From a virus (lineage: Duplodnaviria; Heunggongvirae; Uroviricota; Caudoviricetes): a stretch of 35,640 nt of DNA. Every line of letters begins with the position of its first letter. Position 1 is the first letter of the stretch. Location: the IMG/VR virus record IMGVR_UViG_2684623059_000001. The stretch is one strand, 5' to 3'. Positions 26,973-32,973 of the stretch are shown here, piece by piece. The notes below the pieces were generated by a model. That model did not search any database. It had not been told where the DNA came from and saw only the letters and a program-made list of their open reading frames with translations. Both the position numbers and the translations under genes were made by a program.

Positions 26973-27032
26973 TGAAAAACGTTTTATGTGAAACCGCCTC
27001 AGGGCGGTTTTGTCATTTCTGGAGCGAGAGGA

Positions 27033-30000
27033 ATGGGTAAAGGCAGCAGTAAGGGGCATACCCCGCGCGAAGCGAAGGACAACCTGAAATCATCCCAGCT
27101 GCTGAGCGTGATAGACGCCATCAGTGAAGGGCCGATTGAAGGTCCGGTGGACGGATTAAAAAGTGTGCTGCTGAACAGTACGCCGGTGCTGGACAGTGAG
27201 GGGAATACCAATATCTCCGGTGTCACGGTGGTGTTCCGTGCCGGTGAGCAGGAGCAGACACCGCCGGAGGGATTTGAATCCTCCGGTTCAGAAACCGTTA
27301 TCGGTGCAGAATTAAAATATGACAATCCGCTCACCCGGACCATCACGTCGGCAAACATCGACCGTCTGCGCCTGACCTTCGGTGTGCAGGCACTGGTGGA
27401 AACCACTTCAAAGGGGGACCGGAATCCGTCGGAAGTCCGCCTGCTGGTTCAGATACAACGTAACGGTGGCTGGGTGACGGAAAAAGACATCACCATTAAG
27501 GGCAAAACCACCTCACAGTATCTGGCCTCGGTGGTGGTGGGTAATCTGCCGCCGCGCCCGTTCAATATCCGGCTGCGCAGGATGACGCCGGACAGCACCA
27601 CAGACCAGCTGCAGAACAAAACGCTCTGGTCGTCATACACCGAAATTATCGATGTGAAACAGTGCTACCCGAACACGGCACTGGTCGGCGTGCAGGTGGA
27701 CTCGGAACAGTTCGGCAGTCAGCAGGTGAGCCGTAATTATCATCTTCGCGGGCGCATTCTGCAGGTGCCGTCGAACTATAACCCGCAGACGCGGCAATAC
27801 AGCGGTATCTGGGACGGAACGTTTAAGCCAGCATACAGCAACAATATGGCCTGGTGTCTGTGGGATATGCTGACCCATCCGCGCTACGGCATGGGGAAGC
27901 GTCTCGGTGCGGCGGATGTGGACAAATGGGCGCTGTATGTCATCGGCCAGAATTGCGACCAGTCGGTGCCGGACGGCTTTGGCGGCACGGAGCCGCGCAT
28001 CACCTGTAACGCTTACCTGACCACACAGCGCAAGGCGTGGGATGTGCTCAGTGATTTCTGCTCGGCGATGCGCTGTATGCCGGTATGGAACGGGCAGACG
28101 CTGACGTTCGTGCAGGACCGACAGTCGGATAAGGTGTGGACCTATAACCGCAGTAATGTGGTGATGCCGGATGATGGCGCGCCGTTCCGCTACAGCTTCA
28201 GCGCCCTGAAGGACCGCCATAACGCCGTTGAGGTGAACTGGATTGACCCGGACAACGGCTGGGAGACGGCGACAGAGCTGGTTGAAGACACGCAGGCCAT
28301 TGCCCGTTACGGTCGTAACGTCACGAAGATGGATGCCTTTGGCTGTACCAGCCGGGGGCAGGCGCACCGCGCCGGGCTGTGGCTGATTAAAACGGAACTG
28401 CTGGAAACGCAGACCGTGGACTTCAGCGTGGGTGCAGAAGGGCTTCGCCATGTGCCGGGAGACGTCATTGAAATCTGCGATGATGACTATGCGGGTATCA
28501 GCATCGGTGGTCGCGTGCTGGCGGTGAACAGCCAGACCCGGACGCTGACGCTCGACCGTGAAATCACGCTGCCAGCCTCCGGCACCACACTGATAAGCCT
28601 GGTCGACGGGACGGGGAGTCCGGTCAGCGTGGAGGTCCAGTCCGTCACCGACGGCGTGCAGGTGAAAGTGAACCGTATCCCTGACGGCGTTGCCGGATAC
28701 AGCGTGTGGGGGCTGAAGCTGCCGACGCTGCGCCAGCGCCTGTTCCGCTGTGTGAGTATCCGTGAGAACGATGACGGCACGTATGCCATCACTGCCGTGC
28801 AGCATGTACCGGAAAAAGAAGCCATCGTGGATAACGGGGCGCACTTTGACGGCGACCAGAGCGGCACGGTGAACGGTGTCACGCCGCCAGCGGTGCAGCA
28901 CCTGACCGCCGAAGTTTCGGCAGACAGCGGGGAATATCAGGTACTGGCGCGCTGGGACACGCCGAAGGTGGTGAAGGGGGTGAGCTTTATGCTTCGCCTG
29001 ACTGTGGCAGCAGACGACGGCAGTGAGCGGCTGGTCAGCACGGCCAGGACGACGGAAACCACATACCGCTTCACGCAACTGGCGCCAGGGAACTACAGGC
29101 TGACAGTCCGGGCGGTAAATGCGTGGGGACAGCAGGGCGACCCGGCGTCGGTATCGTTCAGGATTGCCGCACCGGCAGCGCCGTCACAGATTGAGCTGAC
29201 GCCGGGCTATTTTCAGATAACCGCCACGCCGCATCTTGCGGTTTATGACCCGACGGTACAGTTTGAGTTCTGGTTTTCGGAAAAGCGGATTACCGATATC
29301 AGGCAGGTTGAAACCACAGCCCGCTATCTTGGCACGGGGATGTACTGGATAGCCGCCAGTATCAATATCAAACCGGGCCATGATTATTACTTTTATATCC
29401 GCAGCGTGAACACCGTTGGCAAATCGGCATTCGTGGAGGCCGTCGGTCGGGCGAGCGATGATGCGGAAGGTTACCTGGATTTTTTCAAAGGCAAGATAAC
29501 CGAATCCCATCTCGGCAAGGAGCTGCTGGAAAAAGTCGAGCTGACGGAGGATAACGCCAGCAGACTGGAGGAGTTTTCGAAAGAGTGGCAGGACGCCAAC
29601 GATAAGTGGAATGCCATGTGGGCTGTCAAAATTGAGCAGACCAAAGACGGCAAACATTATGTCGCGGGACTTGGCCTCAGCATGGAGGACACGCCGGAAG
29701 GCAAACTGAGCCAGTTTCTGGTCGCCGCTAACCGTATTGCGTTTATTGATCCGTCTAATGGCAACACACGACCAATGTTTGTTGGTCAGGGCGATCAGAT
29801 ATTCATGAACGACGTGTTCCTGAAGCGTCTGACGGCCCCTACCATCACCAGCGGCGGCAATCCTCCGGCATTTTCCCTGACACCGGACGGGCGGCTGACG
29901 GCGAAAAACGCTGATATCAGCGGTAACGTGAATGCGAACTCAGGAACGCTCAACAATGTCACGATAAGTGAGAACTGTACGATTAAGGGCATGCTGGAGG

Positions 30001-30446
30001 CGACCCAGGTCAGAGGGGATTTCGTTAAAGCTGTATCAAAAGCCTTCCCGAAAAAAGTCGGTACGTGGGGTAACACGGAAACGCCAGACGGGACGGTTAC
30101 CGTCACCATCAGCGATGATCATAACTTTGACCGTCAGATTATTATCCCGCCCATTATTTTTAACGGTATAGCGTATACCGATCCGGGAAGTGGTAATAAT
30201 CCGGGAGGTACAAGGTACACGGGTTATGGATTTGAAGTTCGCAAAAACGGCGTATTAATCGCATCCAGAGAAACTAAAGGGGCCATTCCCGGTAGTTACA
30301 GTGCGGTTATTGATATGCCGAGTGGGCGAGGTAGCGTCACTCTGGAGTTTAAGATTTACCAGAAAGGCAATCAGGGGGCAGGCAATATCACCGACTGTAC
30401 GGTGATTGTGACCAAAAAAGCGGCTTCCGGCATCAGTATTCGTTGA
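27033..30446 (+). CDS. J: Central tail fibre / host-specificity protein J
   Basis: From ATG 27033: [41 protein letters not shown]..., lambda gpJ-like over most of its length; C-terminal region looks different from lambda J by recall. Listed ORF begins at an upstream GTG (26988). Confidence 0.93.
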
Positions 30447-30466
30447 AATTGTTATAACCCATATAA

Positions 30467-30491
30467 GGGCACCAGAAATGGTGCCTTTTTT
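30467..30491 (+). terminator. Rho-independent terminator after J
   Basis: ggcacca / gaaa / tggtgcc hairpin followed by tttttt. Confidence 0.55.
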
Positions 30492-30515
30492 ATTGCAGAA
30501 AAGCGAGAGGTAATT

Positions 30516-31115
30516 ATGCGTAAATTATGTGCTGTTATTCTGTCCGCAGTAGTCTGGCTGGTTGCCGCTGGTACGCCAGCGAGCGCAGCAGAGCATCAGT
30601 CCACACTAAGCGCCGGGTATCTTCAGACCCATACTGATATGCCAGGCAGTGATGACCTGAAGGGCATTAACGTGAAATACCGTTATGAGTTTACGGACAC
30701 GCTGGGGCTGGTGACGTCATTCAGCTATGCAGGAGACAAGAATCGCCAGCTGACCCATTACAGCGATACCCGCTGGCACGAAGATTCCGTGCGTAACCGC
30801 TGGTTCAGCGTAATGGCGGGGCCATCTGTGCGCGTGAATGAATGGTTCAGCGCGTATGCGATGGCGGGTGTGGCTTACAGCCGTGTGTCGGCTTTTTCCG
30901 GGGATTATCTCCGCGTAACTGACAACAAGGGGAAAACGCACGACGTGCTGACCGGAAGTGATGACGCTCGCCACAGCAATACCTCTCTGGCGTGGGGAGC
31001 TGGCGTGCAGTTTAACCCGACCGAATCCGTGGCCGTTGATGTCGCTTATGAAGGCTCCGGCAGCGGTGACTGGCGTACCAACAGTTTCATCGTTGGTGTC
31101 GGTTATAAATTCTGA
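30516..31115 (+). CDS. lom: Lom outer-membrane protein (Ail/Lom/PagC family beta-barrel)
   Basis: Signal peptide MRKLCAVILSAVVWLVAAGTPASA, beta-barrel character and C-terminal ...GVGYKF; lambda Lom-like; own ribosome-binding site gagagg. Confidence 0.9.
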   Translation: MRKLCAVILSAVVWLVAAGTPASAAEHQSTLSAGYLQTHTDMPGSDDLKGINVKYRYEFTDTLGLVTSFSYAGDKNRQLTHYSDTRWHEDSVRNRWFSVMAGPSVRVNEWFSAYAMAGVAYSRVSAFSGDYLRVTDNKGKTHDVLTGSDDARHSNTSLAWGAGVQFNPTESVAVDVAYEGSGSGDWRTNSFIVGVGYKF

Positions 31116-31142
31116 TTAGCCAGGTAACACAGTGTTATGACA

Positions 31143-31168
31143 GCCCGCCGGTTCAGGCGGGCTTTTTT
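31143..31168 (+). terminator. Rho-independent terminator after lom
   Basis: gcccgcc / ggttca / ggcgggc hairpin followed by tttttt. Confidence 0.6.
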
Positions 31169-31179
31169 GTGGGGTGAGT

Positions 31180-32493
31180 ATGGCAGTAAAGATTTCAGGT
31201 GTACTGAAAGATGGTGCAGGTAAGCCGATACAAAACTGTACCATTCAGCTAAAGGCCAGGCGCAACAGCACCACGGTGGTGGTGAACACAGTGGCCTCAG
31301 AAAACCCGGATGAAGCCGGGCGTTACACAATGGACGTTGAGTACGGTCAGTACAGCGTCATTCTGTTGGTGGAGGGATTCCCGCCGTCACATGCCGGGAC
31401 CATCACAGTGTATGAAGATTCTCAGCCGGGTACGCTGAATGATTTTCTCGGTGCCATGACGGAGGATGATGTCCGGCCGGAGGCACTGCGTCGTTTTGAA
31501 CAGATGGTGGAAGAGGCAGCGCGTCACGCTGAGGAGGCGAAGAAGAATGCCGGAGAGGCAGAGACGTCAGCGAGGAATGCGGGTATATCAGCCGGCCAGG
31601 CGGAAAAGAGTGCAGTAAATGCTGAGACTTCTGCAGGGGATGCATCGGAGTCAGCCCGGCAGGCGACGGAAAGTGCAGCCTCAGCAAAGCAGTCAGAGGA
31701 TGCGTCCTCGTCCTCGGCTTCTGCGGCCGCTCAAAAAGCCAGTGAGTCATCACAAAGTGCAGCAGAAGCTGAATTGTCAAGAAAGACGGCAGAAAGTGCA
31801 GCCGATAATGCATCCAGGGATGCAACGACCGCAGCAGAAAAAGCCCGGGAGTCAGCAGAAAGCGCACAGTCAGCGGAACAAAGCAGGATAGCGGCGGAAG
31901 AGGCCGTAAACCGAATCCCCACCGTGGTGGGACCTCCCGGGCCAAAGGGGGAACAGGGGCCCGCTGGCCCTCAGGGGCCGAAGGGTGATAAGGGAGAGCG
32001 TGGTGACACCGGCCCTGTCGGGGCAACCGGCGAACGGGGACCGGGAGGAGATACAGGTCCGGCAGGCCCGCAGGGGCCGAAAGGCGACAGGGGGGAACGG
32101 GGAGAGACCGGTCTGACGGGAAGTACAGGTCCACAGGGGCCAAAGGGAGATACCGGTGCAGCAGGCCCGGCAGGCCCACAGGGACCGAAAGGAGAAACAG
32201 GAGCGGCAGGTCCGGTGGGGGCTACCGGACCTCAGGGGCCGAAGGGAGACCCGGGCGAGACACAAATCCGTTTTCGTCTGGGGCCGATGAGCATTATTGA
32301 GACAAACAGCTATGGCTGGTTCCCGGATACAGATGGTGCGCTCATCACCGGACTGACCTTTCTTGACCCCAAAGATGCCACACAGGTTCAGGGGATGTTT
32401 CAGCATTTGCAGGTCAGATTTGGTGACGGGCCGTGGCAGGATGTTAAGGGGCTGGATGAAGTGGGCAGTGATACAGGCAGAACAGGAGAATGA
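31180..32493 (+). CDS. stf: Side tail fibre protein with collagen-like Gly-X-Y repeat domain
   Basis: N-terminus [38 protein letters not shown]... lambda Stf-like; middle is Ala/Ser/Glu-rich; then about 35 uninterrupted G-X-Y triplets ([29 protein letters not shown]...) and a ~75-aa C-terminal globular domain. Confidence 0.85.
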
Positions 32494-32494
32494 C

Positions 32495-32764
32495 ATGAAC
32501 ATACTAAAAAAACTTATGCAGCGTCTGTGTGGTTGCGGAAAGCATGATGGCCGTGAACACGGGCAGTCACTTACAGCACAACTGCGACTGGGGCCGGCAG
32601 ACATCCTGGAGTCAGATGAGAATGGTATTATCCCGGAGCAGGCCAGGGTAATCACTCAGGTGGTGATACTGGATGCGGATAAAAAGCAGATACAGTGCGT
32701 GGTAAGACCGCTGCAAATTCTGCGTGCTGACGGGACGTGGGAAAATATTGGCTGGATGAAGTAA
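32495..32764 (+). CDS. Hypothetical small protein (89 aa) immediately downstream of stf
   Basis: ATG 2 nt after the stf stop, preceded by aggagaa; followed by a terminator; no family recognised. It sits where a tail fibre assembly gene would be in lambda, but is much shorter than lambda Tfa. Confidence 0.45.
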   Translation: MNILKKLMQRLCGCGKHDGREHGQSLTAQLRLGPADILESDENGIIPEQARVITQVVILDADKKQIQCVVRPLQILRADGTWENIGWMK

Positions 32765-32782
32765 CCCGACAGCTTCACAAAA

Positions 32783-32805
32783 CCGGAGTCTGGCTCCGGT
32801 TTTTT
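32783..32805 (+). terminator. Rho-independent terminator closing the tail fibre operon
   Basis: ccggag / tctgg / ctccgg hairpin followed by tttttt. Confidence 0.55.
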
Positions 32806-32973
32806 GTTGTCATGTCATGGTGATGTTTGTTAATGAAGTTAAATTTATTTTGGCTTGATAATGGAGTCTTATCTTTTGCAAGACTGATAATGGTGTGTGA
32901 AAGCATTGTGATAAGTAAGATGCTTCAACAGGAAATCAAGTAAAATGTTAATGAAGTTAATGGGGGTTTTATT

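Follow-up and report, generated by a model that had tools for sequence, protein, structure and literature searches.

Introduction

Collagen-like fibres recur across the lambdoid prophages of pathogenic Escherichia coli, and one of them, EPclA, has been characterised biochemically (Ghosh 2012, PMC3368898). We examined a locus of this kind in a 35,640-nucleotide stretch of viral DNA (IMG/VR record IMGVR_UViG_2684623059_000001, Caudoviricetes; hereafter the window), in which the side tail fibre gene stf is followed by a small gene of 89 amino acids. EPclA is listed for prophages CP-933K, O, R, U and P and for Sp3, Sp4, Sp9, Sp10, Sp14 and Sp15, with copies sharing >90% amino-acid identity, and is given as 437 amino acids with a 116-amino-acid PCoil and a 111-amino-acid collagen domain (Table 2 in PMC3368898). 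Recombinant EPclA, an ECs2717-type protein, was a trimer by analytical ultracentrifugation and by size-exclusion chromatography with multi-angle laser light scattering, and it formed a collagen triple helix by circular dichroism with a melting temperature of 42 C (PMC3368898). The PCoil of EPclA formed an alpha-helical coiled coil of three chains, and PfC, its terminal knob domain, trimerised by itself and, after melting, enabled fast refolding of the helix (PMC3368898). Rotary-shadowing electron microscopy showed EPclA as a dumbbell of at most ~62 nm when fully extended (PMC3368898).

The small gene also has described relatives. A homologue in phage Sp5, ORF68, was noted in 2016 among the non-essential late genes, while the Sp5 fibre gene ORF67 was essential (Mondal et al., PMC5155283). 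Sp5 ORF68, phi24B 'gp59' and VT1-Sakai H0003 are orthologues of the window gene, 89 amino acids long and 92-98% identical, and they share its junction with the fibre gene and its terminator; the Sp5 and phi24B copies follow a podoviral EPclB fibre, whereas the window copy follows a siphoviral EPclA fibre. More distantly, lambda Stf and Tfa have in common with the window a homologous N-terminal collar domain and the order J, lom, stf, small gene, with the tfa slot filled. The small gene is a member of a family that is already known and annotated, and it duplicates, as a gene by itself, the knob that ends the fibre. What we add here is that it is a constrained, knob-linked partner across three fibre architectures.

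Results

An EPclA-type fibre and its domains

The fibre open reading frame (ORF) starts at 31174/31180 and was numbered from the ATG at 31180. The fibre and the small gene were resolved into the following features (coordinates in the window).

31180..32493, plus strand: stf, 437 amino acids and a TGA stop (ORF list, translation, Pfam, PHROG tail fibre families)
31180..31578, plus strand: PfN, lambda-Stf-like N-terminal collar or tail-attachment domain, amino acids 1-133 (PF08400, E 1.6e-69)
31579..31929, plus strand: PCoil, Ala/Ser-rich, amino acids 134-250, a predicted trimeric coiled coil (composition and Ala periodicity)
31930..32262, plus strand: collagen domain, 37 uninterrupted Gly-X-Y triplets, amino acids 251-361 (regular-expression scan, PF01391)
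32266..32457, plus strand: PfC knob of the fibre, amino acids 363-426 (PF06820, E 3.9e-34, profile positions 1-64 of 64)
32458..32490, plus strand: 11-amino-acid tail after the fibre PfC
32484..32488, plus strand: Shine-Dalgarno sequence AGGAG within the stf 3' end, 6 nt before the small-gene ATG (direct sequence read)
32495..32764, plus strand: 89-amino-acid stand-alone PfC paralogue (translation, PF06820, phrog_576)

The beginning of the fibre had rightly been called lambda-Stf-like, since in addition to the PF08400 match amino acids 1-94 matched the 'Tail fiber protein' chain of PDB entries 9e7m and 9mgh (E 2.1e-52), which represent the Ur-lambda tail tip complex with the side-tail-fibre collar (PMC12617516). 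The 117-amino-acid PCoil contained 30% Ala, 20.5% Ser and 6.8% Leu, Val and Ile combined, and its Ala autocorrelation peaked at lags 3, 4, 7, 10, 11 and 14, a heptad-type periodicity. The collagen tract (Pfam Collagen PF01391, E 4.7e-17) was a single run with zero interruptions in a regular-expression scan of the translation, with 37 triplets where the original prediction, made from the sequence alone, had given about 35. Pro was observed at X in 18 of the 37 triplets and Y was mostly Thr, Lys or Gln, with totals of 18% Pro and 21.6% charged residues. Such a run cannot have originated by chance. The segment C-terminal of the tract measured 76 amino acids (~75 had been estimated), and the trimerisation role suggested for it has been shown experimentally for PfC (PMC3368898). 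A monomer model of the fibre PfC was all-beta with low confidence.

A PDB sequence search with the fibre returned only collagens and the Ur-lambda Stf N-terminus. Pfam gave no match in the fibre to the Phage_fiber_2 repeat (PF03406), and none in the fibre or the small protein to Peptidase_S74 (PF13884), so the intramolecular-chaperone domain entertained in the original prediction was not borne out. No C1q/TNF-like fold was detected, the fibre PfC model being itself of low confidence.

All four marks of EPclA (PfN, PCoil, uninterrupted (Gly-X-Y)n, PfC) were observed in the window fibre. The two also share the domain order PfN-PCoil-Col-PfC, a length of 437 amino acids, a PCoil of 116-117 and a collagen tract of 111 amino acids, ~22% charged residues in the collagen, an Ala/Ser-rich PCoil with few Leu, Val and Ile, and a place after lom in a lambdoid prophage, with allelic differences only. 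The window fibre is almost certainly an EPclA-type side tail fibre of E. coli lambdoid prophages, and the region holds, in intact form, the side-tail-fibre module that EPclA defines in EHEC-type (enterohaemorrhagic E. coli) lambdoid prophages. As such the fibre is already known, an ordinary further allele of a type characterised in 2012. Because its domain architecture matches and EPclA copies are >90% identical to each other, it would likewise form a trimer with a triple helix. Compared with lambda Stf, it lacks the Phage_fiber_2 repeats and the lambda-type distal domain, and its shaft is instead a coiled coil with collagen.

The small gene encodes a second copy of the fibre knob

The original prediction had described the gene behind stf as unknown and not Tfa-like. 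The latter agrees with our search, as Pfam gave no Tfa/Caudo_TAP (PF02413) match in the small protein and PF06820 was its sole match at E<=0.01; lambda Tfa thus differs from the window protein, which is a copy of the fibre's own tip. The former does not stand. Amino acids 28-89 (32576..32761) constitute a full-length PF06820 domain (Phage_fiber_C; E 3.6e-33, 114.2 bits against a curated cut-off of 25) that is 34% identical (E 1e-11) to the C-terminal domain of the fibre at amino acids 363-426. In addition, phrog_576 covers 89 of 89 positions (E 3.7e-59), and RefSeq names the protein 'phage tail fiber C-terminal domain-containing protein'. It had no NCBIfam match, and a PDB sequence search with it gave nothing at E<=1. 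In an AlphaFold2 model, the PfC part had six beta strands with predicted local distance difference test scores (pLDDT) of 80-84.

The N-terminal 27 amino acids (32495..32575) contain a short helix and a conserved L-C-G-C-G-K motif (amino acids 11-16, 32525..32542) that includes Cys12 and Cys14 and may serve as a metal site, a disulfide or an acylation site. L11, C12, G13, G15 and K16 were invariant across 29 protein variants, while the motif reads LCGCGK in Citrobacter rodentium and LFGCDK in a divergent orthologue (L081, below). The motif resembles a relaxed lipobox; we rejected a lipoprotein reading on the grounds that there is no hydrophobic signal region and that in the C. rodentium form the first Cys is preceded by 4 residues. 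The window copy carries W87, where most other copies have G, and VITQVVILDADK(K) and ADGTWENIG(G/W)MK are candidate peptide targets within the 89-amino-acid protein.

The stf TGA lies at 32491..32493 and 1 nt separates it from the small-gene ATG, which is preceded by the Shine-Dalgarno sequence inside stf; the small gene is translationally coupled to stf. Upstream, its frame stays open as far as 32363 and runs into the stf 3' end, and for this reason its start has been annotated inconsistently. Public start-site calls include 129 amino acids in Min27 (L085 2481..2870), 135 in the phi24B search database and 102-131 in several clusters. We favour the 89-amino-acid form because of the conserved Shine-Dalgarno sequence and ATG and the 89-position PHROG.

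The small gene accompanies PfC-ended fibres

Homologues of the small protein were found in a narrow set of hosts. We examined the best 120 of 175 homologues from a 5.8-billion-protein collection, and all were 49-131 amino acids long and came from E. coli, E. albertii or C. rodentium. When 1.84 billion representatives were searched with a profile, there were only 80 matches, mostly fragments, and the alignment stayed shallow; the family is very narrow. By tblastn the gene was present in 296 phage records at 88-98% amino-acid identity, with nearly its whole length matched in 293; long- and short-tailed Shiga toxin (Stx) phages were among them. A species-wide genome scan gave two loci only, one in E. 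albertii and one on a 725-bp 'Xanthomonas pisi' contig. The latter (L084, NZ_JPLE01000138.1) carries a small ORF with 92% amino-acid identity and is most likely E. coli phage contamination.

Synteny was scored among 80 IMG/VR loci chosen by the PfN domain only, using those whose fibre ends in PfC and is followed by at least 275 nt. The small gene adjoined the fibre in 49 of 49 qualifying loci, which agrees with the conservation and synteny expected of a gene tied to collagen-like fibres. Its ATG was exactly 2 nt after the fibre stop in 42 of the 49, and the junction GGAGAATGAcATG was identical in 42 of 45 related loci and also in the podovirus Min27. The three loci with a different fibre end (L039, L054, L064; EPclD type) all lacked the small gene. 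EPclD fibres share the PfN-PCoil-collagen front part and the genomic position with the window, while their C-terminus is a Peptidase_S74 endosialidase-type intramolecular chaperone (E 1.1e-12) with no PfC and no stand-alone PfC gene; behind them are a 185-amino-acid Gp38_N adhesin-like ORF and a 70-amino-acid DUF4376 ORF. Since EPclD fibres are followed by the Gp38_N gene and PfC-ended fibres by the small gene, each type of fibre C-terminus has its own partner gene in the slot behind it. The EPclD fibres measured 519 and 411 amino acids (L054 4995..7446, L064, L039 4995..7122).

Because the 49 loci are close relatives, we sought independent cases. Min27, a short-tailed Stx2 phage (Traversvirus), has a 595-amino-acid EPclB fibre with three Gly-X-Y runs, one Phage_fiber_2 repeat (PF03406) and PfC, followed by the 89-amino-acid gene with an identical junction and terminator. 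The second case, L081 (110..974; GCA_008387015.1, contig AAKHPG010000016.1), has a 212-amino-acid fibre without collagen that ends in PfC (PF06820, E 4.3e-16) and is similar in its N-terminal part to the tail fibres of Yersinia and Vibrio phages. Its small orthologue, of 79 amino acids, overlaps the fibre end by 14 nt and is 62% identical to the window protein in the PfC part, while the fibre PfC is 41% identical. The hairpin that follows the small gene in the window was found likewise in Min27 and L081. As the L081 pair follows a collagen-less PfC-ended fibre, we consider the small gene to be paired with the PfC knob and not with collagen. When the L081 genome was compared by megablast with 5,426 complete E. 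coli genomes, none matched. Beyond its terminator L081 carries nleG-like and SopA-like effector genes.

Several further observations were made on the IMG/VR loci. Partial extra copies of the small ORF were present in four of them (L013 7363..7431, L026 3851..3919, L071 7362..7430, L059 5885..6031), spanning amino acids 58-80 or 37-85 at 73-78% identity and located 0.7-0.8 kb downstream of the intact copy; none was in the window. Of 52 loci, 9 had a fibre disrupted by a stop or frameshift that fell between its PfN and PfC, and there the small ORF was usually intact. Collagen length changed by whole triplets (8, 15, 32, 36, 37, 38). Many contigs stopped within the repeats of the PCoil or the collagen, which probably reflects assemblies breaking where prophage sequence is present in multiple copies.

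The stand-alone knob is the more conserved copy

Pairwise PfC identity was 61-97% within the small type, 39-92% within the fibre type and 28-36% between the types. Since the paralogues group by type and not by locus, the PfC duplication is old, preceding the split of these lineages, with both copies kept. Of the two, the stand-alone PfC is more conserved than the fibre PfC. The ratio of nonsynonymous to synonymous substitution rates (dN/dS), a crude estimate obtained by pooled pairwise Nei-Gojobori comparison of 33 distinct alleles of the small gene, was 0.18 overall; the first 27 codons gave 0.39 and the PfC part 0.07, against 0.24 for the fibre PfC. Ratios this low clearly mark the small gene as translated and constrained, with strong purifying selection.

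Two rare joins of the types were observed. P0069 (L082 4..291) joins collagen ('GERGP') directly to a small-type PfC ('ADILESD...') in 95 amino acids at a contig start, with 4 members, and P0121 joins the N-terminal 40 amino acids of the small protein to a fibre-type PfC tail; both could be true recombinants or assembly artefacts. A third protein from the representative search, P0144 (565 amino acids), contains four tandem repeats that look like PfC's C-terminal half ('...TKTVVVLDAD...GILQVRRADGTW.EIPA.KG') and, behind them, a collagen tract, which suggests that a PfC-like beta unit may occur as a repeat in unrelated fibres too.

Peptides of the small protein in a virion proteome

The proteome of gradient-purified phi24B virions includes the peptides ADGTWENIGGMK and VITQVVILDADKK, both unique to the 89-amino-acid ORF 'gp59', in a spreadsheet row labelled 'Spike or just gp59?' (bioRxiv 10.64898/2026.04.10.717836). 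The database searched there also held hypothetical gp61-gp59 entries ('Fusion_6159_FS1/FS2'), and the main text of the preprint makes no mention of the gp59 peptides or of the fusions (bioRxiv 10.64898/2026.04.10.717836). Pointing to this unremarked evidence is part of what the present analysis contributes.

Gene neighbourhood

The window looks like the late region of a lambdoid prophage, with J, lom, fibre gene, small gene and type III effector cargo following one another at its right end. The features around the fibre module were as follows.

26988..30446: J (ORF list)
30516..31115: lom (Pfam Ail_Lom, E 8.5e-124)
31142..31163, plus strand: terminator-like hairpin 3' of lom and just 5' of stf (consensus scan; 8-bp stem with 7 G-C pairs, then a T run)
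32779..32803, plus strand: terminator-like hairpin ending the stf and small-gene pair (consensus scan; 11-bp stem, then a T run)
32974..33621, plus strand: nleG (PF06416)
33824..34099, minus strand: Mutator-family transposase fragment
34315..35640, minus strand: nleA-like ORF of 441 amino acids reaching the window edge (annotated nleA by RefSeq in close relatives)

The consensus scan gave terminator-like hairpins 3' of J, lom and the small ORF, and since the last two flank stf and the small gene, these are set off as a pair that closes the late operon. The effector cargo (nleG, nleA) starts directly past the 32779..32803 terminator. The window contained no second copy of the small gene or PfC besides the fibre's own.

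The 1.8-kb fibre region matched 364 phage records, 324 of them at 90-95% nucleotide identity and the best at ~94%; these included Stx1- and Stx2-converting phages, phage 2851, VT1-Sakai, cdtI and BP-4795. A 5.2-kb query (30400..35640) had at least a partial match in 5,287 of 5,426 complete E. coli genomes, the best being only ~96-97% identical.

Discussion

We consider it very probable that the small gene encodes a genuine protein with a functional link to PfC-ended fibres. For its role, we propose an account in which the EPclA fibre module carries the small protein as an accessory at the fibre tip, and which as a whole we judge somewhat likelier to be right than wrong. As close homologues have been shown to do, three chains would form a dumbbell fibre, a homotrimer with three trimerising elements. 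Its lambda-Stf-like N-terminal collar domain would dock the fibre on the tail, the shaft would consist of the three-stranded Ala/Ser-rich coiled coil and the 37-triplet collagen triple helix, and PfC would be a knob that trimerises unaided and nucleates the triple helix. The small gene would supply a separately kept paralogue of this knob behind a short helix and a Cys-Gly-Cys linker. This protein would trimerise via its own PfC and be carried by the virion as a dispensable fibre-tip accessory, possibly a cap, a stabiliser or an auxiliary adhesin, and its gene would occupy the slot of tfa in lambda and of the gp38-like adhesin in EPclD fibres.

The tip-accessory role taken by itself is tentative, somewhat short of an even chance. 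We favour a dispensable virion-associated partner because the small protein is co-translated with the fibre, kept with PfC-ended fibres and apparently in virions, and such a role would parallel that of the gp38-like adhesin gene in the EPclD slot. A more specific form, in which the stand-alone PfC is a second trimeric knob stacked on the fibre knob and serves as the actual distal adhesin or as a modulator of specificity, is unlikely but worth naming. If true, this 'knob-on-knob' arrangement would be a two-component tip, with PfC end, small gene and terminator as a portable module among siphoviral, podoviral and collagen-less fibres.

Several points weigh against the tip-accessory account. Most of the syntenic loci are closely related (PfN at least 89% identical), and truly independent cases are few, namely the lambda-like prophages, Min27 and L081. 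The dN/dS values likewise derive from related sequences whose pairs are non-independent. Trimerisation of the small protein is a prediction from its PfC domain, and its binding to the fibre is putative. The virion evidence consists of two peptides, which contamination or a frameshift fusion may explain. Since the Sp5 homologue is non-essential on K-12, any tip function would be accessory or host-specific.

The first alternative is an assembly helper. Here the small protein would be a non-structural, Tfa-like chaperone that in vivo transiently helps the PfC knob and the collagen helix to fold and come into register, as a template or by speeding the process, and is then released. Its position in the tfa slot, its production alongside the fibre through translational coupling, its strict co-occurrence with PfC-ended fibres and its possession of the very fold it would template are all consistent with this. 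However, recombinant EPclA, Col-PfC and PfC trimerise and quickly refold in laboratory E. coli without the small protein (PMC3368898), and Sp5 ORF68 is dispensable where the fibre gene ORF67 is not (PMC5155283), which together contradict an obligatory, dedicated chaperone. There is also no Caudo_TAP or Peptidase_S74 match, and peptides of the small protein are present in purified virions. The small protein may yet be a non-essential helper; we regard the helper reading overall as unlikely, on a level with the stacked knob.

A soluble decoy is less probable still. In this case a free PfC trimer, released at lysis or made in lysogens, would bind the fibre's surface ligand or a different one and block adsorption to debris or superinfection. 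Such a protein would be expected to have a knob without a tail-attachment domain, as observed, and the greater conservation of the small-type PfC over the fibre knob and the loosely lipobox-like L-C-G-C-G-K motif could be read the same way. Against this, the protein has no hydrophobic signal sequence and only 4 residues precede the first Cys in the C. rodentium version; we found no promoter-like site upstream of the gene, which sits in the late operon between terminators, and its peptides were recovered from gradient-purified virions.

The small gene has also been proposed, for Sp5 ORF68, to be an 'intragenomic reservoir' (PMC5155283), that is, a stored alternative C-terminal cassette that could replace the fibre knob by recombination and vary specificity. 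While the rare chimeras P0069 and P0121 would fit this, a silent cassette is hard to square with the gene's own Shine-Dalgarno sequence and ATG, conserved in 42 of 45 loci, with a PfC dN/dS of 0.07 that is below that of the fibre knob, or with the detected peptides. Neither the 80 profile matches nor the best 120 of 175 homologues included a long fibre with a small-type PfC end, and at only 28-36% identity the two knobs offer no substrate for homologous exchange. We consider the reservoir improbable, slightly more so than the decoy.

Finally, a programmed frameshift or read-through, by which some ribosomes would continue from the fibre into the small ORF and yield a minor, fused fibre with a second knob, is very improbable: although the small frame is open upstream to 32363, some annotations give 115-135-amino-acid versions and the phi24B authors' search database had 'Fusion_6159_FS1/FS2', the Sp5 authors found no slippery sequence or frameshift signal (PMC5155283), a shift within 32363..32493 would ruin the fibre PfC, the strong Shine-Dalgarno sequence and ATG point to independent initiation, no peptide with MNILKK or across the junction appears in the phi24B proteome, and the 'fusion' entry exceeds gp61 only in sample EA1829 (25 vs 24), the third-last sample column, with portal, fibre and capsid peaking in much earlier columns, a weak hint of free small protein.

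The fibre itself adds nothing new, as EPclA forms a family with many copies per EHEC genome. The small gene is among the most conserved of the tail-fibre module in Stx-converting and related prophages; it is more constrained than the fibre tip and apparently in virions, yet dispensable on K-12. Fibre engineering could make use of the small protein as a compact module, either for trimerisation or as an adhesin. Should the protein modulate adsorption or host range, it would matter for the spread of Shiga-toxin and effector phages between E. coli strains.

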